A DNA stretch of 63,989 nucleotides, filler included, from Thermoplasmatota archaeon (GTDB taxonomy: Archaea; Thermoplasmatota; E2; JACPAO01; JAHFTW01), in NCBI GenBank assembly GCA_041623215.1. It is 9 parts of 9 records of this genome, joined end to end, with 100 filler letters (N's around TTAATTAATTAA, not from the genome) between each part and the next. Parts side by side here need not be neighbours in the genome. Positions count along the whole stretch, not along the records: positions 38,185 to 45,531 come from JBFJXH010000084.1; 8 more parts are not named here. One strand, written 5' to 3'. A program made the position numbers and the translations under genes. Each line of letters begins with the position of its first letter. Positions within the stretch are counted from its first letter, which is position 1. The notes below the pieces were generated by a model. That model worked only from the letters and a program-made list of their open reading frames with translations. It was not told where the DNA came from and searched no databases. Shown one piece after another: positions 12,206 through 45,531 of this stretch.

Positions 12206-14581
12206 ATGGAAACTCGGGTGGTCGTGCTGGCGGTAGCTGTCCTCTTGGCGGCCACGGCACTGCCAACAGAGGGAGCGTGGCAGCAATTTCGCTACAACCC
12301 CGCCCACGAAGCGCGGACCGACGTTCCGGCAGGCATCTTGTCTGCCACCGATCGCTTCGTTACCACTCCAGGCCCGATTCTTTCCGGCATCACGACGGCC
12401 GAGATTGACGGCGAACGAATCGCGTTCTACGGAACCTACACGGGCATCAACCAGCCTGGTGAACTGTTGGCCACACGCGCTGATGGCTCCACCTTGTGGG
12501 CTCGCGCGCAGGCTGTGCCAGCACCAGCTGGCTACATCGCCACGCCAACGGTACGTGATCTAAACGGCGACGGCGCGTTGGAGGTCATCGTGGCCAGCCT
12601 GGACGATTCCACGGTCCGCGTCCACGACGCACGTACCGGCGGCGTCCAATGCAGCGCCACGGTTGGCACAGCAGGCCGCGACCTGCTGGCATCCTCGGCC
12701 ATGGTGGCTGACTTGGATGCTACACGCCCCGGCCTCGAATTCGTCATTGGCGGCTCGAAAGGCAACGAGGCAGGCAGCCTGATGGTTTTCGACCAGCATT
12801 GCAACGAAGTGTGGTCGGCGGTATTGGATGGACCCGCCTGGTCCTCGGCGCTCATCCAGGACTTGGATGGCGATGATACGCTTGAGGTGGCTATCACCAC
12901 AGGTCTGCCCGAAGCCATTGAAATTCTGTTCCCGAACGCCAAAAGCGGCGGCCAGGGACTATTCGTGTTCGAGCAAGATGGTTCGCTGCACTGCAGCCAC
13001 GTCATGGCCGCTGCCAGCATGGGCAGCCCGGTCGCCGCCGACATTGACAACGATGGCGGGATTGAAATTGTGGCTGCCGACACCCTGAGTCAGACGCGTG
13101 TTCTCAACGCCGATTGCTCGCTGCAAGTCACCATTCCCACAAGCGGGATTGGTACGCCCGTGCTGCACGACATTGACGACGACGGTGTCATCGAGGTCAT
13201 TTACGGCGACTGGACCACGGTCCGCGCCTGGGAAGTTACGACGACAGGGCGCAGTTTGGACTATCGTGTTTCGCTGCCGTGGAAGCCGAGCGACGTCGAC
13301 CCCTGGGTGCTTTCCAGCGTCGCGCTTGGCGACCTCGACAACGACGGCGACATGGACGTCGTGGCTGCCACGACGCCGGTTCGCGTCAATCTCGAGTCGC
13401 CGTTGGAATCCGATGCATTGCCGGGTACCGTGTATGGCATCGACCTTGCCAATGAGGCGATTCTCTGGGCTTACGAATTGCCCAACGACGGCGCCATCAG
13501 CAGCCCCGCCATCGACGACCTCGACGGCGACGGCTGGGCCGAGGTAATCATCGGCGAAGGGGTGCCGCTAATTGGCGATGGAGGGGCGTTGCATGTCATC
13601 GAGAATGCGAACCCCATCATTCGCGCGGTAGCCTCTACGACGCCCGACCCGATGGCAACCAAACCTGTAGCCTTCGTCGCCAACGTGATTGACGGTGACC
13701 AAAGCACGGCCAGCCTTGCTTACCTGTGGGACTTTGGCGACGGCAACACCAGCACCGCGCACGCGCCCAGTCACCGATTTGGCCCAGACCGGGCAGGTGC
13801 GAACATTGTGCTGCTCACCGTAAGCGACGCCGAGCATTCATGGCAAGAGAGTTTCGTCGTCCACCTGCGCGAGCATCGGGAGGCCACGTCGTCGGCGGTC
13901 GCCGTGGCGGAGGACCAACCGCGCGACCCCGGGGCGGCCGTCACGCTGCAAGGAACCCTCACCAACATGGGGTCGGTCCCAGACACCTTCCGCTTTACCT
14001 CATCGTACCAAACCGCTTGGCAGATGTCGCTGCCAGGAGATCTCACCCTGGCGCCCGGGGCGACCGCCGACATCTCGGTGCCAGCGGTCGTACCGTCGTC
14101 CGGGGCCACGCCCGTGGTGTCCATCCGGGCGACAAGTCTGGGAGATGCAACCGTTGAAACCCAAATCGCGTGGACGTTCGGAGGCTCGCTGCGCTTCATC
14201 CTGGACATGGATGGCGACTTCAGCAGGCCCTACTTTGCATCCAACCGGCACCCGGGCATGCATGACCAGCCGGTAGCGGGTACGCTGGTCATGGACCAAG
14301 GAGACGAAGGCATTGCCAACGTCACGGTGACCTTGCAACGCGTCCAGGAAACGAGCACATCCACGGTGCTAGCAATTCTTACTGGAGGGGGTGCAGGGGC
14401 AACCAGCCCTGCGTTGGCGGTTACTGACGACAACGGCGTGGCCCATTTCTCCTTCACCGACGACGCTAGTCGCACCCCTGGGCGGCATAGGGTGACGGCC
14501 ACGGCCACGTACGACGATACAACCTACACAGCCATCACGTACTACGAAATTCGTGCCCCGCCTGCTTTGGCGGATTCTTGA
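12206..14581 (+). CDS. Secreted FG-GAP/VCBS-repeat beta-propeller protein with PKD and Ig-like domains
   Basis: Signal peptide; repeated DLxGDGxxEV motifs; YLWDFGDG PKD motif. Confidence 0.85.
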   Translation: METRVVVLAVAVLLAATALPTEGAWQQFRYNPAHEARTDVPAGILSATDRFVTTPGPILSGITTAEIDGERIAFYGTYTGINQPGELLATRADGSTLWARAQAVPAPAGYIATPTVRDLNGDGALEVIVASLDDSTVRVHDARTGGVQCSATVGTAGRDLLASSAMVADLDATRPGLEFVIGGSKGNEAGSLMVFDQHCNEVWSAVLDGPAWSSALIQDLDGDDTLEVAITTGLPEAIEILFPNAKSGGQGLFVFEQDGSLHCSHVMAAASMGSPVAADIDNDGGIEIVAADTLSQTRVLNADCSLQVTIPTSGIGTPVLHDIDDDGVIEVIYGDWTTVRAWEVTTTGRSLDYRVSLPWKPSDVDPWVLSSVALGDLDNDGDMDVVAATTPVRVNLESPLESDALPGTVYGIDLANEAILWAYELPNDGAISSPAIDDLDGDGWAEVIIGEGVPLIGDGGALHVIENANPIIRAVASTTPDPMATKPVAFVANVIDGDQSTASLAYLWDFGDGNTSTAHAPSHRFGPDRAGANIVLLTVSDAEHSWQESFVVHLREHREATSSAVAVAEDQPRDPGAAVTLQGTLTNMGSVPDTFRFTSSYQTAWQMSLPGDLTLAPGATADISVPAVVPSSGATPVVSIRATSLGDATVETQIAWTFGGSLRFILDMDGDFSRPYFASNRHPGMHDQPVAGTLVMDQGDEGIANVTVTLQRVQETSTSTVLAILTGGGAGATSPALAVTDDNGVAHFSFTDDASRTPGRHRVTATATYDDTTYTAITYYEIRAPPALADS

Positions 14582-38184: not shown

Positions 38185-39722
38185 ACGCCGGCCAGCAAGC
38201 CATGTTCGTCAAGGACTGGGAAGCCGTTGTGGCCTAAATCCAGCATTTGGTTGAAGGCGCGACCAGCTTCCATGTCCGCTGGCAGCGTGTCCACATCGCG
38301 GGTCATGATGTCTTTGACTTGGACGGTGTCGAGCGGAGACTGCATGCGGTCGTGGTCGTACACGATGCCGCGCTGGCGCAGGCGCACGGTGTAGATGCTG
38401 TCGCGCGACAGGCCAACACTCACGGCGTCGGCGGCCACAGCGGCGAACATGAGGGGGAGCACAATCGTGTATCCGTTGGTTAGCTCCGACAGCAAGACAA
38501 TAGTGGTGAGTGTCGCGCGGCCGGCGCTGGCATAGAAAGCGCCCATGCCCACCAGTGCATAGGCGGCGGGCGGTGCCGATTGAATGGGTGCAAACCAATT
38601 GATTAGCAGGCCCACCAGGGCACCGTAGAGAGCACCCTGGTACAAGCTGGAACTAAAGACGCCGCCGCCACCACCGCTGCCAATGGTGATGCTGCTTGCC
38701 AATGGTTTGGCCAGGATGAGCAGTGCCAAGAGTGGCACAATCAGCATGGTGGGTTCGCCGCGCAGAATGGCATTCACCGTGGCATAGCCGGTGCCGTAAA
38801 TGTGGAAGTGGCCGGTGGCCAGCATGATGAGGACGCCCAGCAGGCCGACCACCAAGCCACCAAGGGCAGGCTTGGTCCAGTAGGGCAACTGAATTTTTTC
38901 CCCAAGTTCGTTGGCGCCGGCCATCAACTTGATGAACAAGACGCCGCCGAATCCGCACAAGATGCCGAGGGCAAGGTAGGCTCCCAGTTCCCACGGCGAA
39001 ACCAGCGCGAATTCGGGAACAAGGAAGGCGGGCTGGTCCCCCAGGATGAAGGTGGCGACCGTCACACCCAGCACCGTCGCGATGACGACGGGAACAAAGG
39101 CATGGGTGCTGAACTCGGGTAGGATCAGTTCCATCGCAAACAGTACCCCGCCCAGCGGCGCGTTGAAGGTGGCCGCGATGCCGGCGGCCGTACCGGCGCC
39201 CAGCAGCACCTTAATGTCGCGGGCGCGGAAGCCGAGGCGTCGCCCGAGGCTGCTGCCAAGAGCTGCGCCGATGTAACCGATGGGCCCTTCTCGCCCCGTC
39301 GAACCACCCGTGCCAACGGTCACGGCACTGATGAAGGCGTGGCCCCACGCTGTGCGCCCTTTGATGATGCCGCCACGGGCTTGCACGGCGGCCATGACTT
39401 CCGCAATGCCTTGGCGGCGCGTTTCGGGGAAGAAATAGCGCACTCCTCCAATGATGATGCCGCCGGCAAAGGGCACGAGGAAGACGAGGAGGCCCCAGCG
39501 GGTGCTGAGAAACGTAGCGTCCTCTGACAATCGGAAGGAGAGTTTGCCATGGAAGGCGAGGTCCTCCACGAAGCTAATGGCGCCGCGAAACACCACTGCG
39601 GCGAGGCCGGCTAGAATGCCCACTAGGATGGCAAGCCCGTTGAGGGCCGTGAACCGCCTAGTCAGGAGCACAGGGCGGCGACCGCTGGGCGCATCATAAG
39701 GGGACGGTTTGCGGCTGACCAC
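38185..39722 (-). CDS. ClC-family chloride channel/antiporter with CBS domains (3'-truncated)
   Basis: GGSTGREGP, AATFNAPLGG, GGGGVFS, SIYT, CBS start VKDIMTRDV. Confidence 0.92.
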
Positions 39723-39773
39723 CTGTCAGGGTGGCGGCCGGCTCGCGCCAGCACCGGTCGTCTTACCCGGTCC

Positions 39774-41486
39774 TTAAGCCGCACCGGCGACCGGCGCATC
39801 AGCGAAGTCCACCAGCGTGCCGCGCAGAGATTGCAGGTCGACCAGCGGCATTTTTGCCGGGTCGGGTGTAAAGTTCAGCATCTTCTGGTACAAGGTCTGG
39901 CTTTGCCACGTGCCGCAGTTGATGTTCATGACATTGCGGTAATGGCGGATGCCGGGCACATGCACGTGGCCGGTGACGAAGATGTCCGGCACATCACTGA
40001 TGACGAGGTGGTCGTGGTGCTCGGGTGCCAGGGGCGTTCGCTCGCCGTAAATGGGGGAGAGGTGCCGGCATTGGAGCATTTGCTCCATGGTTGCCAAGGG
40101 GTCTTCGTAGTCCAGGTGCGTGACACTGGTGGCAAAATCGATGAGGCTGAAGCCGTGGTACCCAAGCGTCAATACATCGTGCATGCGAAACCACGCCGGA
40201 TTTGCCACGAAATCGGTACCGTGGTGGTCGAAGGAGGTGCGAACCTCTTGGCTGAACGCTGGCTGGGGTTCGGCCGGCCGTGCAGCATCGTGGTTGCCGG
40301 GCTGCACAACAATCTGCAGGTGGTCCGGCAGGTGCTCCATCCAGCGCCCGAACTCAGCGTACTGGTCGTAAATGTCCCCGATGGTCAATTCGTCCTGCTG
40401 GCCCGGGTAGATGCCGATGCCATCAACAAGATCGCCCGGGATGATGAGATACTTGACTTGGCCGGCGGCCTGGCGGCCCCGACGGGAGTCTGCGTCGCCG
40501 CCGAGCCACTTGATCATGGCAGCAAAGTTGTCCGGCAGGAAGGTGTTACTACCGACGTGGATGTCCGATAGGAACGCGGCCGACAGGGGTACGTCGCTGC
40601 CTGACTTGCGCTGATTAAGGGGAACATCAGGTCGCACCAGCGACTCCACGAACAGCAGGTCGCCTTTGTTGCTGGCCGTTGCCACCACCCCAATCACTTC
40701 GTCGGGCACGAGGGTATCCGCGAAGGTTGTGAGCACCTTTTCGTCTGCCCGAACCAGGGCCGTGATCGTGCCGCTAGGGTCTTCCAATTCGATGCGGCGG
40801 TGGCCGTTTTTTGTGGTCGCCGTGGTTTCTACCATGGCAATGACGGCTACCTGTTGCTGGCCGGCTCGGATGCGCTCAATGGGAACCGCCGAGCGAAGCT
40901 CGCGCCGCTGCCGGAGCATTTTGCTGATTTGCTCGTAGCGGTCCTGAAAATAATCCACGAAGTCGCTCGTGGTGCCCTCGCAGGTGCTGTTGCCAGTCAT
41001 GTCGCTGACAACGTCCAGCCGCGCTTCGTGCTCCGCAGCCATCGGGCGCCAGTCGCTGCGGGGGCGAACTACCACATGGGTTGCCTCGGCGCCCAGCGTA
41101 CGGGCGTTGCGGGGCGCTTCCGGGTGAAGGTCTTCGCCGTGGTCCTCCACGACGTCATCGTCTTCGTCGGCGTCGGGTGCCGCTTGGGCGCCGTCGTAAA
41201 TGGCGGCAAGGGCTCCCTTGAGCGCTTGCTTGGCGGCTTGGCGGTCGGGGCTGGCGGCCGGCTGCGATTCGGCGGGTGTGCTGGCAGCTTCACGGGCGCG
41301 CGCCTCCAAGTCTTCCCACAAAGGCAGGTCCATGTGGAAGGGGACTTCGGATAGCGTGGCAAGCAGCGCCTGCGCGCGCGCCACAGGGTCACCGCCGCCG
41401 TCGGCCAGCAAATGGTCAAGCAGGATTGGGTCAAGAAGAGCGCCGTGGCTGTCGAACAAGGCGACTAACTCCCGGCGCGCATCCAT
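39774..41486 (-). CDS. DNA polymerase D small subunit DP1 (proofreading exonuclease)
   Basis: OB fold, SDIHVGS, GDLVDGIGIYPGQ, PGNHDA, YHG, HLSP.YG, TGHVH. Confidence 0.95.
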   Translation of the reverse strand: MDARRELVALFDSHGALLDPILLDHLLADGGGDPVARAQALLATLSEVPFHMDLPLWEDLEARAREAASTPAESQPAASPDRQAAKQALKGALAAIYDGAQAAPDADEDDDVVEDHGEDLHPEAPRNARTLGAEATHVVVRPRSDWRPMAAEHEARLDVVSDMTGNSTCEGTTSDFVDYFQDRYEQISKMLRQRRELRSAVPIERIRAGQQQVAVIAMVETTATTKNGHRRIELEDPSGTITALVRADEKVLTTFADTLVPDEVIGVVATASNKGDLLFVESLVRPDVPLNQRKSGSDVPLSAAFLSDIHVGSNTFLPDNFAAMIKWLGGDADSRRGRQAAGQVKYLIIPGDLVDGIGIYPGQQDELTIGDIYDQYAEFGRWMEHLPDHLQIVVQPGNHDAARPAEPQPAFSQEVRTSFDHHGTDFVANPAWFRMHDVLTLGYHGFSLIDFATSVTHLDYEDPLATMEQMLQCRHLSPIYGERTPLAPEHHDHLVISDVPDIFVTGHVHVPGIRHYRNVMNINCGTWQSQTLYQKMLNFTPDPAKMPLVDLQSLRGTLVDFADAPVAGAA

Positions 41487-41612
41487 GCCCACGTCGCGGC
41501 CATCCTAACGGTCGTCAAAAGGCTACGCCGCCGCCCATCGAGTGCGGGGTGCAAAGCGGTGCGCGGCGCGGGTCGAACGCTAGGCCGAGAGGCGCACCTT
41601 GCGGTTTGGCTG

Positions 41613-42239
41613 CTACAAGTTGGCTAGCCATGCCGCGACCGCATCAACGACGCGGCCGTTGTGGCTTGGCTCGAGAAAATGACCTGCGCCGGATAGGACC
41701 TCGATGGCGGCCTTCAGGCTGGCGGCGAGACGTCTTGCCTCCGCTGGTGTTACGAACTCATCCTGGTCGCCCACTATCACCAGCGCTGCCGTCGGGCGAA
41801 GGTTCGGGGCGTCTTGCAGGGGGGCCAGCGTTGATGCCGACACTTCGAGTGGCGTGCCCACCACGACGAGGCCCGCCACTTGCTCGCGGGTCGCCAGCCG
41901 GACGGCGACGCCGCCTCCGAAGCTATGTCCCAGCACGACCGGCGCGGCACCCCGGCATTGGTCTTGTAGCCAGGCAAAAGCTGCCTTGGCGTCCGCCACC
42001 TCTTCGTCGCCCTGCCCTTTCCCGCCATCGCTGCCCCCGACGCCCCGGAAATTGAAGCGCAGACAGCGATAGCCCGCCGCGGCGAGAGCCTTCCAGAGGT
42101 CGTATGTGAGGCGACTTCCCATGCTGCCCTCAAACAGGGGGTGCGGATGGAGCAACAAGACCGGCGGGCCGTCAACGGGACCTCGCAACCGCCCCTCGAG
42201 CGAACCAACTGGACCGGGGATGACGACATGCTCACTCAT
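41613..42239 (-). CDS. Alpha/beta-fold hydrolase
   Basis: HPHPLFEGSM, LRFNFRGVG, GHSFGG, GDQD, GHF. Confidence 0.9.
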   Translation of the reverse strand: MSEHVVIPGPVGSLEGRLRGPVDGPPVLLLHPHPLFEGSMGSRLTYDLWKALAAAGYRCLRFNFRGVGGSDGGKGQGDEEVADAKAAFAWLQDQCRGAAPVVLGHSFGGGVAVRLATREQVAGLVVVGTPLEVSASTLAPLQDAPNLRPTAALVIVGDQDEFVTPAEARRLAASLKAAIEVLSGAGHFLEPSHNGRVVDAVAAWLANL

Positions 42240-42269
42240 GGAACCTCTTGCCGCAATGCGGCTTGATGA

Positions 42270-42344
42270 CGGACGCGGCCGGATTCGAACCGGCGACCCC
42301 CGGCTTAGAAGGCCGGTGCAGTATCCAGGCTGTGCCACGCGTCC
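42270..42344 (-). tRNA. tRNA-Arg(TCT)
   Basis: GGACGCG/CGCGTCC, CCGGC-CTTCTAA-GCCGG, T-loop TTCGAAT. Confidence 0.93.
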
Positions 42345-42482
42345 AAACCGGCCACTTATCCTCCCCTGTTAGGGTTGCGCTTCCAAGGCGCTGCGGGGGT
42401 GGCGGGCGGGGCTGCCAATCACCTCACGCTTGCACAATACCACCGACGTGTTTAACTAAGGATGGAAACCGGTCTCTTGACC

Positions 42483-43061
42483 ATGCACCGCCGCATTCCC
42501 ACCCTCCGCATGTTTCTGACCGTCGCCGTCGCCGTTGCCATCGCCGTGCCTGTCGCCCTGACCGGGGCCTACGCCAGCCAAGACGACCCTGGGGCCGGGC
42601 AAACCTTCTCCGGGGACGGCTCGCAGGCGAGTGACGAACCTGAACGACCCGGCATGCATCGCTACCGAGGCTTCATCGATGTCTCGGCGCGAGCCGACGT
42701 CGGAACCCCCAGCCTCATCTTCAACGACCAAGAAGGTCGTGGCACCTACTTCGACATCGACGACTCCACCGGCGTCGTCTTCGAACTGGTGTGGGCCCCC
42801 GTCGACCCCTACCTCACCGGGGAGCGCGTTGACCTTCACTTGGATATTGACCACCCTGGTGGCCATGACGTTGGCATTGGTACCGGCACCGGTAGCCGCT
42901 CCGACCCCCTGACGTTCACGTACCTAGAACCCAAAGACGGCCGCTGGCACGCCCTAGCGGTCGCCGAAGATGCCGCTGCCCAACAGGAATACTACCTGTA
43001 CGTCAGCATCTTCCGCGACGGCCCCCCGCCCAGCGGTTACACCGTGTTCGATTACCTCTGA
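42483..43061 (+). CDS. Secreted hypothetical protein (beta-sandwich-like)
   Basis: Hydrophobic N-terminus; FELVW..VDLHL..GRW; TTTAAC upstream. Confidence 0.6.
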   Translation: MHRRIPTLRMFLTVAVAVAIAVPVALTGAYASQDDPGAGQTFSGDGSQASDEPERPGMHRYRGFIDVSARADVGTPSLIFNDQEGRGTYFDIDDSTGVVFELVWAPVDPYLTGERVDLHLDIDHPGGHDVGIGTGTGSRSDPLTFTYLEPKDGRWHALAVAEDAAAQQEYYLYVSIFRDGPPPSGYTVFDYL

Positions 43062-43393
43062 TCAAGACCTACACCCTCGCCCTCTTCCCCCTCGTTCCCT
43101 TGAATCACAACCACTTGCTGTTGTTGCTGTTGTTTCCCGGACGAGCCGCCGCTAACGGCTGCCACGATGGCACCGATGGCCCCCGTCATGACCAGAACGA
43201 CGGCCAGCAACACGAGGCCACCAAGCAGAATGGCCGCCGTAATCATGCCCTCCCAGTCCTCGTCACCCGGGCCATAACGGTCCGGCGCACAATCGCCAAT
43301 GCAGATGCCCCCGCCGTTCGAGGAGGATTGACTCGTGCAACCCGCCAGGAAGGCCGTCGAAACCAATAGCGCAAGCAGCAAGAAGCGGCCCAT
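43052..43393 (-). CDS. Small lipoprotein/membrane protein with poly-Gln tract
   Basis: FLAGC lipobox, CIGDC, TM helix, KQQQQQQVVVIQ. Confidence 0.6.
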   Translation of the reverse strand: MGRFLLLALLVSTAFLAGCTSQSSSNGGGICIGDCAPDRYGPGDEDWEGMITAAILLGGLVLLAVVLVMTGAIGAIVAAVSGGSSGKQQQQQQVVVIQGNEGEEGEGVGLDQR

Positions 43394-43490
43394 GGAAGAG
43401 CCGGGGTCAAAGCAACCCTTAACGCTTGCCGCCCACGCCTCGACGCCCGCCGATGCAGCAGAGACCGCCGTCTCGGCGAAGGATGAAAAG

Positions 43491-43564
43491 TGGGCCCCAT
43501 GCGATTCGAACGCACGACCTTCCGGTTATCAGCCGGATGCTCCACCAGACTAAGCTAGGGGCCC
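43491..43564 (-). tRNA. tRNA-Ile(GAT)
   Basis: GGGCCCC/GGGGCCC, TCCGG-CTGATAA-CCGGA, T-loop TTCGAAT. Confidence 0.94.
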
Positions 43565-43655
43565 TAAGGGCGCTCTTTGGAGCATCCGGCTGCGGTACCC
43601 CAATTTCTCCTGTTGGAGACGCGAGGTGCCCCGTACCGATGCCCCAGAGGACAGT
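43565..43655 (-). promoter_or_regulatory. Structured 5' leader of tRNA-Ile containing a 15-nt antisense-to-tRNA segment
   Basis: 43578-43592 is the exact reverse complement of 43530-43544. TATA-like CTTAAG at 43676-43681. Confidence 0.55.
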
Positions 43656-43909
43656 CCCGGCGACAATGACGCCGACTTAAGCACTACGGACGTGGGGCCT
43701 TGCCCCTCGTGGGTGCCCCATCATCGCCCTACCCTTGCCCGCGGCGGTCGCCTAGTCCTCGTGCCACCTGGCAAAGATGGGCTTCTCCGTCGGCCACGCC
43801 TGCGAGACGGCCAGCCCACCGGCCGACGCCCCCGGGGCCACCTAGCAAATGGTCCCAAACCACTAGGGCCCATTTGCCCCAACCGGCAACCATATCCGTG
43901 ACGGGGTCC

Positions 43910-44337
43910 AATAGAGAAGGGCGCACCCATGTGGTGCGTCAACCGGTGACGGACCCTTCGGGGAAACCGAACCGGGACCCAGAGGTAACGAAGGGTCACG
44001 CCATCCAACGGGAGAGCAGCGCGGCATACTCGCTGCCCCGGGCACGGACCGGAAACGGCACCGGCTCGGACCGAACCGGAGGGGCCACGGAAGCCTGCAA
44101 GGGCGACCGGCGGGCGCTGCGGCTTGTCCAATGCGTCTGACTGTAGGAAACCAGTCCACCTGATCCTGCTATCGCCTGGAGAAATCCAGGAAAGAACGGC
44201 CTTAGGGGGAAAAACCGCTGGAGCCCCAACGAAAGGACGGGCACAAGAGGCGCGTGTGGACCACCCCTGCCGCTGGGTGAACCGCACGATCACCTTTGGC
44301 CCGTGTGGGCGAGCCTTCCAGGCTCCGATGCTTTTTT
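43910..44337 (+). ncRNA. Putative large, highly structured non-coding RNA of unknown class (OLE-like candidate)
   Basis: No credible ORF; at least six GNRA-capped hairpins on the + strand, several 6-9 bp helices, terminal hairpin plus T6. Confidence 0.65.
44311..44337 (+). terminator. Hairpin plus T-tract ending the putative ncRNA
   Basis: GAGCCT-TCC-AGGCTC followed by TTTTTT at 44332-44337. Confidence 0.5.
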
Positions 44338-44361
44338 GCCGACGACCGAGTGGCCGAACCC

Positions 44362-44718
44362 ATGGTAACAGTCGGCGAAGGCGTCCTTGAGGAAGAGGCC
44401 TTCGCGGCCTTCGAGAGCCTGCGAACGTTTGACGCCGAAGGCGTGGCCCAGCAATTGCACGAAGGCTGCACGCTGCACGGTGGCTGGTTGGAAGTGCCCC
44501 TCGAAGGGCGCGAGGCCATCCAGGCCTACCTGGCCGAGCTGCTTGGAGACCCCGTCAAGCGCCCTAGTTTCAGCCTGCTGGATGCGAGCGGCGACGGCAG
44601 CGTGACGCGGCTGGCCCTATCCGTGAGTGGCCGGTTTGGCAAGGCGCCCCAGAAAGTACGCGTTGACATTTTGTCCCTCAAGGGCGCCATCCATCAGATT
44701 GTCGTTCGCGACGCGTAG
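44362..44718 (+). CDS. NTF2/SnoaL-like small protein
   Basis: FDAEGVAQQLHEGCTL..PLEGREAIQAY pattern; 118 aa. Confidence 0.6.
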   Translation: MVTVGEGVLEEEAFAAFESLRTFDAEGVAQQLHEGCTLHGGWLEVPLEGREAIQAYLAELLGDPVKRPSFSLLDASGDGSVTRLALSVSGRFGKAPQKVRVDILSLKGAIHQIVVRDA

Positions 44719-44772
44719 ACGCCTGGTGCCCCATGGGCAACGGTTAAGTTGCCGCAAGGGCCCTGAGGCGGT

Positions 44773-45306
44773 ATGGAATGGGTAAAGGTAGGTATGAGCC
44801 TCCTGGCGGTGGGGCTGTTCTTTGTTCCCGCTGAAGCCTCGCATGGCTGGCCGTCTGCCAAGTATTACTACGAGGATGGAGCCTTCTTCGACGCCTCGTG
44901 TGGCCCGGGCATCACCAATGCCATGTGTGCTGACGTACCCGCCGGGACCCAACTTATCCTGGTTGATTTCTACCAGCATGCCGGCATGCCAATCATGCCT
45001 CGGGTGGGCGCTGACCCGTACGACTTCAACGACCCTGTGACCGTCACAAACGATGACCGGCAATTTGTTTCCGGTGTGGTGACAATCCACCCGGCTACTG
45101 GCATTTCCTACAGTGAGCCGTTCTGCGGCGGCGCCAACATTGACCTCGCCTTGCGTGGCATCTATGATGCCACTTCGGTGAGCATCGCGTTCCGCAACGG
45201 TGGCATCGATGGCCCCGCCCACGACTGTAGCACCCTGGGTGGCCTAACGCTCGACGGCGCCAACGGCGACACGGGCTATGGCGAAATTCTCTTTCGGCAC
45301 TACTAG
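44773..45306 (+). CDS. Secreted hypothetical protein
   Basis: Signal peptide ending AEA-SH; four Cys; GTTAAG about 25 nt upstream. Confidence 0.65.
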   Translation: MEWVKVGMSLLAVGLFFVPAEASHGWPSAKYYYEDGAFFDASCGPGITNAMCADVPAGTQLILVDFYQHAGMPIMPRVGADPYDFNDPVTVTNDDRQFVSGVVTIHPATGISYSEPFCGGANIDLALRGIYDATSVSIAFRNGGIDGPAHDCSTLGGLTLDGANGDTGYGEILFRHY

Positions 45307-45413
45307 CCGGTAAGGGCCGTCCGCTTCGATTGGCAGCTAGCGCGAGCAAGGCACCGGCCGTCGCGAAGCATGGCATTTGGGGCCAGGGCAATGACAAGTC
45401 GTCGTGGACTTGG

Positions 45414-45531
45414 TCAGGGAGCTAACGCTGGTGCGTCGGCCTTTCCCAGCTGGCCAGAGCCAGCTTGCCCTTCCGCGTCCTTCTTCTCTTCGAACTCGGC
45501 GTCAACGACATCGTCGTCCGAGTCGGGGCCG
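45414..45531 (-). CDS. dnaK: C-terminal tail of Hsp70 chaperone (fragment)
   Basis: Minus-strand frame GPDSDDDVVDAEFEEKK...; DDVVDAEFEE is the DnaK terminal motif. Confidence 0.7.

Follow-up and report, generated by a model that had tools for sequence, protein, structure and literature searches.

Comparative sequence analysis supports a structured RNA family of Thermoplasmatota that is real and strongly supported, and one long member of it occupies the gap between a tRNA-Ile gene and a SnoaL-like gene in the genome studied here, very probably as a stand-alone structured RNA gene. Both family and fold appear new and are apparently undescribed. An earlier note on this DNA had read the gap as a large structured non-coding element of an archaeon, either a relative of OLE RNA or a new class; the general reading is borne out and, of its two options, the new class is the supported one. 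The literature searched, largely outside subscription journals, yielded no description of the family. The COMPASS preprint (10.64898/2026.10.21.760802) clusters, according to its accessible text, all GTDB intergenic regions, archaea included; that accessible text does not contain 'Thermoplasm-', and the atlas or supplements may contain the family as an unnamed cluster.

The window, i.e. the whole stretch of DNA analysed (63,989 nucleotides), joins separate contig pieces across N runs. The RNA locus lies within a contig of 7,347 bases (window 38185–45531), so that sequence beyond these limits is not adjacent DNA. The features of the locus are as follows.

43491–43564, minus strand: neighbouring tRNA-Ile(GAU) gene, divergent, not a conserved neighbour.
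43888–43897, plus strand: predicted archaeal promoter box, BRE/TATA-like, judged from its sequence and from a similar box 25 nt before the ATG at 12206; putative in function.
43911–44337, plus strand: whole non-coding RNA gene, long variant of ~425 nt, with estimated ends (start 43911–43920, end 44320–44337).
43920–43997, plus strand: variable 5' domain with hairpins at 43920–40, 43943–52 and 43952–97, replacing the P1/P2 hairpins of most relatives.
43999–44002, plus strand: 5' strand of P3, pairing with 44249–44252; 4 bp here versus 6 bp in most relatives.
44004–44011, plus strand: 5' strand of P4, which closes the four-way junction, pairing with 44215–44222 (7/8 pairs; 7/8 compensatory in the family).
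44016–44036, plus strand: P5 hairpin with the 11-nt loop GCGGCAUACUC, the most conserved stretch; 44021–44026 kisses the P9 loop.
44038–44069, plus strand: P6 variable arm, including CCG-GAAA-CGG, ~12 to ~45 nt among copies.
44072–44209, plus strand: P7 arm, with C44072–G44209, a GAA bulge, CC/GG (44076–77/44207–08), a purine-rich internal loop and a stem (44082–86/44198–202).
44087–44197, plus strand: window-specific insertion of ~110 nt in P7, with three hairpins (loops GCGA, GAAA and GAAA); a 107-nt gap in the model.
44210–44241, plus strand: A-rich junction strand AAAAA (44210–14), 3' strand of P4 (44215–22) and P8 hairpin (44224–41).
44254–44287, plus strand: P9, the 3' hairpin, whose loop UGCCGC (44268–44273) pairs with GCGGCA (44021–44026).
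44311–44337, plus strand: 3' hairpin and T6; the T6 probably serves the SnoaL gene as TATA box and may be the end of the RNA as well.
44362–44718, plus strand: neighbouring gene for a SnoaL-like (NTF2 fold) protein (PF12680, E 9.4e-6).

All GNRA-capped and other hairpins listed in the earlier note are present in the sequence at the positions given there, as are the AACCATA motif at 43888 and its counterpart upstream of 12206. The plus strand of 43905–44340 folds at z = −3.14 against dinucleotide-shuffled controls (0/100 shuffles as stable) and the minus strand at z = −1.01. An extension of the RNA to ~600 nt had been considered, but 43570–43910 folds at only z = −1.27 and has no match in 40 relatives; likewise a long 3' stem at 44237–44304 was not confirmed, being in conflict with the covarying helices of the family. 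The last hairpin and T6 lie where they had been placed, but a terminator function of the T6 is unsupported, because 30 nt separate it from the SnoaL ATG, a position at which relatives have a T-rich box even with the RNA ending 100–250 nt away. As to coding capacity, the gap had been considered free of credible ORFs. Overlapping ORFs do exist (146 aa on the plus strand and 190 aa on the minus strand), but no frame is common to the homologues: in 7/54 copies every frame of both strands is interrupted by stops, and the remaining copies do not agree on which frame is open.

Known RNA families do not account for the locus. Rfam gave no family match in the gap at the gathering score and two chance matches at E ≤ 10; across the window, Rfam 15 yields tRNAs only, and searches at E ≤ 10 of the region and 10 homologue loci gave scattered weak matches, none recurring. 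The exclusion of RNase P, SRP and tmRNA by the earlier note was correct. The RNase P, SRP and 5S RNAs of the host genome lie on other contigs (112, 139 and 80 bits), and an rRNA fragment or displaced 5S was rejected, given the tRNA-only Rfam result in the window and the 5S elsewhere.

The search for homologues among Thermoplasmatota that had been proposed, with a covariation test, found both homologues and strongly covarying helices. BLAST of the gap against 40 relatives gave a match restricted to 43993–44037, in 6 of them. A 21-nt pattern was present in 17/38 genomes of the order (0 for the reversed control); 15 matches are real on inspection, and two (L016 and L017) were dropped as chance matches. 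A first covariance model (R1), built from 13 copies with the window copy left out, was positive in 31/32 genomes of the host family, the negative genome being 71% complete, and scored nothing >17 bits in the remaining 6 genomes of the order and in other families (151 genomes of the class). This model matches window 43986–44297 at 60.6 bits (E 3.6e-23), the single copy in the host genome. A second model, limited to a core of 115 positions, reproduced this distribution with two further paralogues and no new lineage. Samples of the phylum (151 genomes) added a second class, in which 5/21 genomes carry 1–3 copies each, including 1/9 genomes of family f15; the copies of this class form one clade (support 0.999). 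The RNA thus occurs in family f1 and in G207, G217 and G289–G291, and is missing in f2, f3, G202 and G240.

Beyond these samples, the exact pattern over a genome collection gave 12 loci, 10 of them titled Thermoplasmatota or Thermoplasmata. The other two, titled 'Halobacteriales archaeon' and 'bacterium', are typical members (133 and 168 bits) and are probably mislabelled; diverged bacterial relatives may exist, the exact pattern being strict. Metagenomes contributed 6 real loci of 93 pattern matches, the other 87 being non-members, the best of which reaches 27.4 bits without the P7 arm. In viral contigs, the first pattern gave 21 loci (best 10.6 bits), the second at least 120 (~200 estimated; best among the matches listed 13.1 bits, in the pattern region only) and the third none. 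Four matches of 35–41 nt in the plasmid collection are unconvincing, and the phage collection gave none. Weak model matches of 11–22 bits were left uncounted, and three of them that were inspected (L062, L064 and L065) are without core motifs. In total, 56 copies were collected, of which 53 were aligned (mean identity 54%, lowest 37%); the model-matched span is 199–312 nt in full-length single copies. Two to three copies occur in G207, G217, G289 and L146. Genus g11 has fused double cores in 3/3 genomes, the second core directly behind the first and grouping in the tree with the copy of another genus, not with its neighbour.

Covariation is the main evidence for the fold. Counts of compensatory pairs, all inflated by the relatedness of the copies, are 38 of 50 for the RNAalifold structure of 13 copies in a plain MAFFT alignment, 39/55 for the proposed structure on the 13-copy alignment (91% of cells paired, 0/500 shuffles, slid controls 35–46%), 43/49 for 33 copies in an alignment fitted to the model and 15/20 core pairs in a fresh MAFFT core alignment of 34 copies; effect size and slid controls leave little doubt on covariation. 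The median folding z is −2.2 (18 of the 53 copies). Judged by these comparisons, the RNA comprises helices P2–P9, with a four-way junction (P4–P7) nested within a larger junction (P3, P4 and P8) and a kissing helix between L5 and L9. Optional 5' hairpins and P2 are followed by P3, which encloses P4 and two P8 hairpins (one GNRA-looped in relatives), and then by P9; P4 closes the junction with P5, P6 and P7, and the conserved core measures ~200–230 nt. Twelve columns are invariant in 53/53 aligned copies, and the A-rich junction strands (AGA, the GAA bulge and AAAA) are near-invariant, two A's of the last being unchanged in 53/53.

Individual helices are supported in the same way. Compensatory changes occur in 6/6 pairs of P3 (33 copies; the window pairs were checked) and in 5/6 pairs of the lower stem of P9 (33 copies). 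In P7, mutual information identifies a Y–R pair closing the GAA bulge (U–A in 33 and C–G in 11 of 53 copies), next to CC/GG pairs kept in 51 and 52 of 53 copies. The kissing helix changes on both sides, with G–C in 45 and A–U in 7, and C–G in 49 and U–A in 2 of 53 copies, and further changes at both of its ends; when a single contig or genome has differing copies (L146; paralogues of G011 and G013), each of them keeps its own kissing halves matched. A second loop contact may join the invariant CU of the P5 loop to AG in the P7 internal loop (U–A in 52/53, the exception being C–G, an exchange that two other members of its paralogue group share); in the window, 44029–44030 probably pairs with 44080–44081. 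This contact is suggestive only, because its support amounts to one compensatory event. OLE has a k-turn near P5 that OapC/YbxF binds, and the GAACC/GGGGA segment resembles the non-canonical stem of a k-turn. Several copies are without the G run needed for a k-turn, the Y–R covariation favours another register, and a Kt-7-like kink-turn register was set aside.

Some copies depart from the common form. The paralogue group of genus g4 (L061:2678–2890, L370:2435–2653 and L371:2637–2849), with changed kissing and loop-contact pairs, has a tryptophan 2,3-dioxygenase gene on one side and, on the other, a co-directional gene without Pfam match at E ≤ 1e-4; it is the foremost candidate for a different role, or one in cis. 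Two copies at L223:15236–16974 (G207:C13) are direct repeats around a radical-SAM gene; the GAA bulge consensus is lost in one of them and in a near-identical third copy (L225:9983–10216). The window copy retains the conserved pairs, and most of its GNRA hairpins sit in the P7 insertion and the enlarged 5' domain. Similar enlarged 5' domains beginning GAAGGGCGC occur in G001 and genus g11. At the P7 insertion site most copies have a short hairpin, and a larger insert is found in G024, whose expanded copy (L081:125–518, G024:C8) is split into two model matches because its insertion is so large. In the window copy, the nested family fold (−183.6 kcal/mol, pseudoknots uncounted) lies 12 kcal/mol above the minimum-energy fold (−196.0), and an alternative with CCAGU/GCUGG pairing reaches −192.9; since the family fold is energetically above these alternatives, the long copy may misfold or switch, and for this copy the energy gap is the chief finding against the proposed structure.

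Gene context supports an independent gene. Counting neighbours within 1.5 kb of 54 copies (some flanks being short), the main copy of the host family usually lies between a divergent dnaJ (15/54) and a gene for a secreted protein (16) or SnoaL (19), both of which follow the RNA on the same strand. These downstream genes carry their own T-rich boxes ~29 nt before the ATG, the position of the T6 in the window; convergent Pfam-supported genes directly follow 5 copies, and in G217 a TATA-like box precedes each of three copies, which are spaced ~430 nt apart with no gene between them. Separate promoter-like boxes, the gene-less triple array and convergent downstream genes thus argue for a stand-alone RNA gene and not a riboswitch. 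In the second class, an AT-rich box lies at a fixed distance upstream in 12/12 copies. The SnoaL-like gene is syntenic with the RNA in the host family only, and three RNA-bearing genome handles of the second class have none, with the window protein as query. No neighbour is conserved across both classes among the 54 copies. An apparent link with metH, which precedes 2 of the RNA copies in genus g11, was dismissed as local synteny.

Other sequence elements were seen around the copies. In genus g5 and one metagenome locus (L044–L049, L052 and L162), a conserved box TTTCG-N-TTTCCC, ~77–83 nt before the model start, lies upstream of the RNA promoter; absent from the window's genome, it is possibly a regulator site shared with the divergent gene. 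The RNA is often followed by a gene for a secreted protein of ~385 aa (L076:5332–6510, L068:4639–5793 and others); these proteins form a family unmatched in Pfam, and their C-terminus is a membrane anchor that ends in basic residues. In the host genome, dnaJ lies on a different contig and the tRNA-Ile gene adjoins the RNA instead; none of 6 relative loci inspected has a tRNA beside the RNA. A perfect 15-nt inverted repeat (window 43530–43544 / 43578–43592) relates this tRNA-Ile gene to its upstream flank, by which the precursor leader could pair with the D/anticodon arm region of the tRNA. A tRNA-Leu gene precedes copies in G217 and L146. At L222:17724–17960 (G217:C8), two to three repeats of the tRNA-Leu(UAA) 3' end and flank, which look like integration scars, lie between this tRNA gene and the three RNA copies directly behind them. 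The single clade of second-class copies and the two cases after tRNA-Leu, once behind 3'-end repeats, suggest island-borne transfer.

It is tempting to propose a role. With evenly balanced confidence, this RNA, absent from Rfam 15 and with a predicted promoter of its own, would have a junction core locked by two loop contacts and would bind a protein or ribonucleoprotein partner stoichiometrically, as scaffold or decoy. Transcription from that promoter is predicted to give a stable, compact RNA. By docking also on the P7 internal loop (2 bp), L5, a single 11-nt loop, would clamp the P7 arm as well as the 3' hairpin. The A-rich junction strands may pack the core and form a binding surface, and P6, distal P7 and P8 would point outward, tolerating insertions of >100 nt as in the window. 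The mechanism of scaffold or decoy, taken by itself, is tentative, at slightly less than even confidence. Action in trans, in which amount matters, is suggested by the tandem fusions and by repeated copies that each have a promoter box, and the L5–L9 contact is likely made within one molecule because each copy keeps its own halves matched. Copy repetition outside the host family could reflect mobility instead of dosage. As to the partner, no neighbour is common to both classes, and a Ro60/TROVE gene, the sign of a Y RNA, was found in 0/5 genomes (88–100% complete; the control was positive in 2/14).

The main rival is a stand-alone ribozyme, whose doubly clamped junction would be an active site, with the RNA itself or a different RNA as its substrate. 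Many ribozymes have cores with a double pseudoknot, and doubly locked cores with invariant residues are as typical of aptamers as of ribozymes. The compact core with its invariant columns and two crossing pairings, and the near-universal, mostly single-copy retention in the host family, would suit a ribozyme. It is nevertheless unlikely, as no Rfam ribozyme matches the region or the homologue loci at E ≤ 10, each copy lies between its own promoter box and ends and shows no trace of being cut out of a longer precursor, and repeated whole genes would fit a stoichiometric role better than a catalyst. Slightly less probable is a ligand-binding RNA, whether a riboswitch-like leader of the secreted-protein or SnoaL gene or a free aptamer. 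The frequent position of these genes after the RNA on the same strand, the tandem cores, which recall tandem riboswitches, and a topology that loosely resembles cobalamin riboswitches are countered by varied neighbours, convergent genes directly after 5 copies, three copies without intervening gene, downstream genes with their own T-rich boxes and a start ~21 nt later, and the lack of any riboswitch model match at E ≤ 10 in the region and homologue loci. A consistent position 5' of co-directional, functionally related genes, as in cis-riboswitches, was not found; these points bear on cis control and not on ligand binding.

A mobile or formerly mobile element, borne on integrative islands, domesticated in the host family and without host role, is very unlikely. 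Such an element would explain the patchy occurrence in the second class (5/21 genomes; 1/9 in f15), the single clade there and the copies behind tRNA-Leu, in G217 behind repeats of the tRNA 3' end, but 31/32 genomes of the host family have one syntenic main copy (a divergent dnaJ lying upstream of 15/54 copies), the flanks inspected hold no integrase, transposase or reverse transcriptase gene, and viral, phage and plasmid collections gave no convincing copy; moreover, mobility would account for spread, not function. Least probable is a remote, shortened archaeal relative of OLE. Its general character (multi-junction, stand-alone) is similar, and a CNNM-domain gene exists in the host genome. 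However, the OLE model (RF01071) has no match at E ≤ 10 in the region, in the homologue loci or in 6 genomes (the genome searches being without positive control); the spans of 199–312 nt, with unconserved upstream hairpins, differ from a conserved structure of ~600 nt. OapA is a protein of ~200 aa without CBS domains, whereas the host CNNM protein (346 aa, CNNM and CBS) is encoded on a contig other than that of the RNA, and a CNNM gene also occurs in an RNA-negative genome. In 5 genomes, searches in which OapA itself was not the query gave only CNNM matches in open frames of 352–509 aa and no short OapA-type gene. The relationship had been suggested from three motifs, of which GGGAG..GGCAU..CCC is conserved and the other two are not: GCUUGUCC falls inside the window-specific insertion that other copies lack, and the CCAGU/GCUGG pairing competes with the covarying helix P4. 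Shortened OLE variants do exist, according to the accessible part of PMC11332333.

Among large structured RNAs, most of those with solved functions are ribozymes or form the centre of basic machines, and those still unsolved (OLE, raiA, ROOL and GOLLD) come from bacteria or phages; the new family extends this kind of RNA to archaea, and combines a fold absent from Rfam with near-universal retention in one archaeal family. A bolder interpretation, somewhat unlikely on present evidence, would see here the first class of ornate, stand-alone RNAs that is native to archaea. Such an RNA would fold by itself around a four-way junction clamped twice, one Thermoplasmatota family could not do without it, and tRNA-linked islands would be carrying it into a second class; its invariant junction would be an undescribed ribozyme active site or an undescribed ribonucleoprotein core tied to a DnaK/DnaJ stress locus. 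Nature offers a minimal form of ~200 nt, an expanded one of ~425 nt, a fused double of ~530 nt and a paralogue group with altered tertiary pairs, so that structure and activity are directly testable in vitro despite the lack of a cultured host.

Among known RNAs, OLE is comparable in being large, ornate, independently encoded and of unresolved function, and it is thought to act as a scaffold, the role proposed for the archaeal RNA too (accessible parts of bioRxiv 10.1101/2024.12.08.627333, PMC11332333 and PMC9723947). According to the available text of PMC11332333 and PMC9723947, OLE measures ~600 nt, is nearly confined to Bacillota and almost always occurs with OapA. OLE is also characterised by localisation to the membrane and by dimer formation. 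The archaeal RNA differs in its core of 200–230 nt, and neither a model match nor an OapA-type gene was found. The raiA motif RNA (ModT; ~200–250 nt, Bacillota and Actinomycetota) is closer in size, in being a stand-alone gene without consistent neighbour and of unknown function, and in its fold, which is rich in junctions, has variable peripheral arms and places two crossing pairings about a compact core (PMC10861870 and PMC12968392, as far as accessible). The host is bacterial in one case and archaeal in the other, and the raiA model has no match at E ≤ 10 in the region or homologue loci. The architecture differs as well: in the accessible descriptions the two ends of raiA are joined by a closing P1 that is strongly conserved, and the pseudoknots of raiA (PK1/PK2) use a linker strand, whereas the end pairing of the archaeal RNA is weak and variable and its crossing contact is a loop–loop kiss to a hairpin 3' of the closing helix. 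ROOL and GOLLD share kissing loops seen by covariation, and some archaeal copies lie beside tRNA genes on island-like DNA, as ROOL often lies near tRNA islands; both are much larger, phage- or prophage-borne and nanocage-forming, whereas the archaeal RNA has neither an Rfam match nor a convincing viral copy, and matching within each copy favours an intramolecular kiss. There may also be some likeness to TPP riboswitch or Kt-7 motifs. The topology of cobalamin riboswitches is loosely similar, with a four-way junction, a large variable extension of the last arm and kissing to a hairpin 3' of the closing stem; the archaeal RNA differs in having no match to their model at E ≤ 10, no shared motifs recognised and no tie to a downstream gene, and in that one loop makes both contacts.
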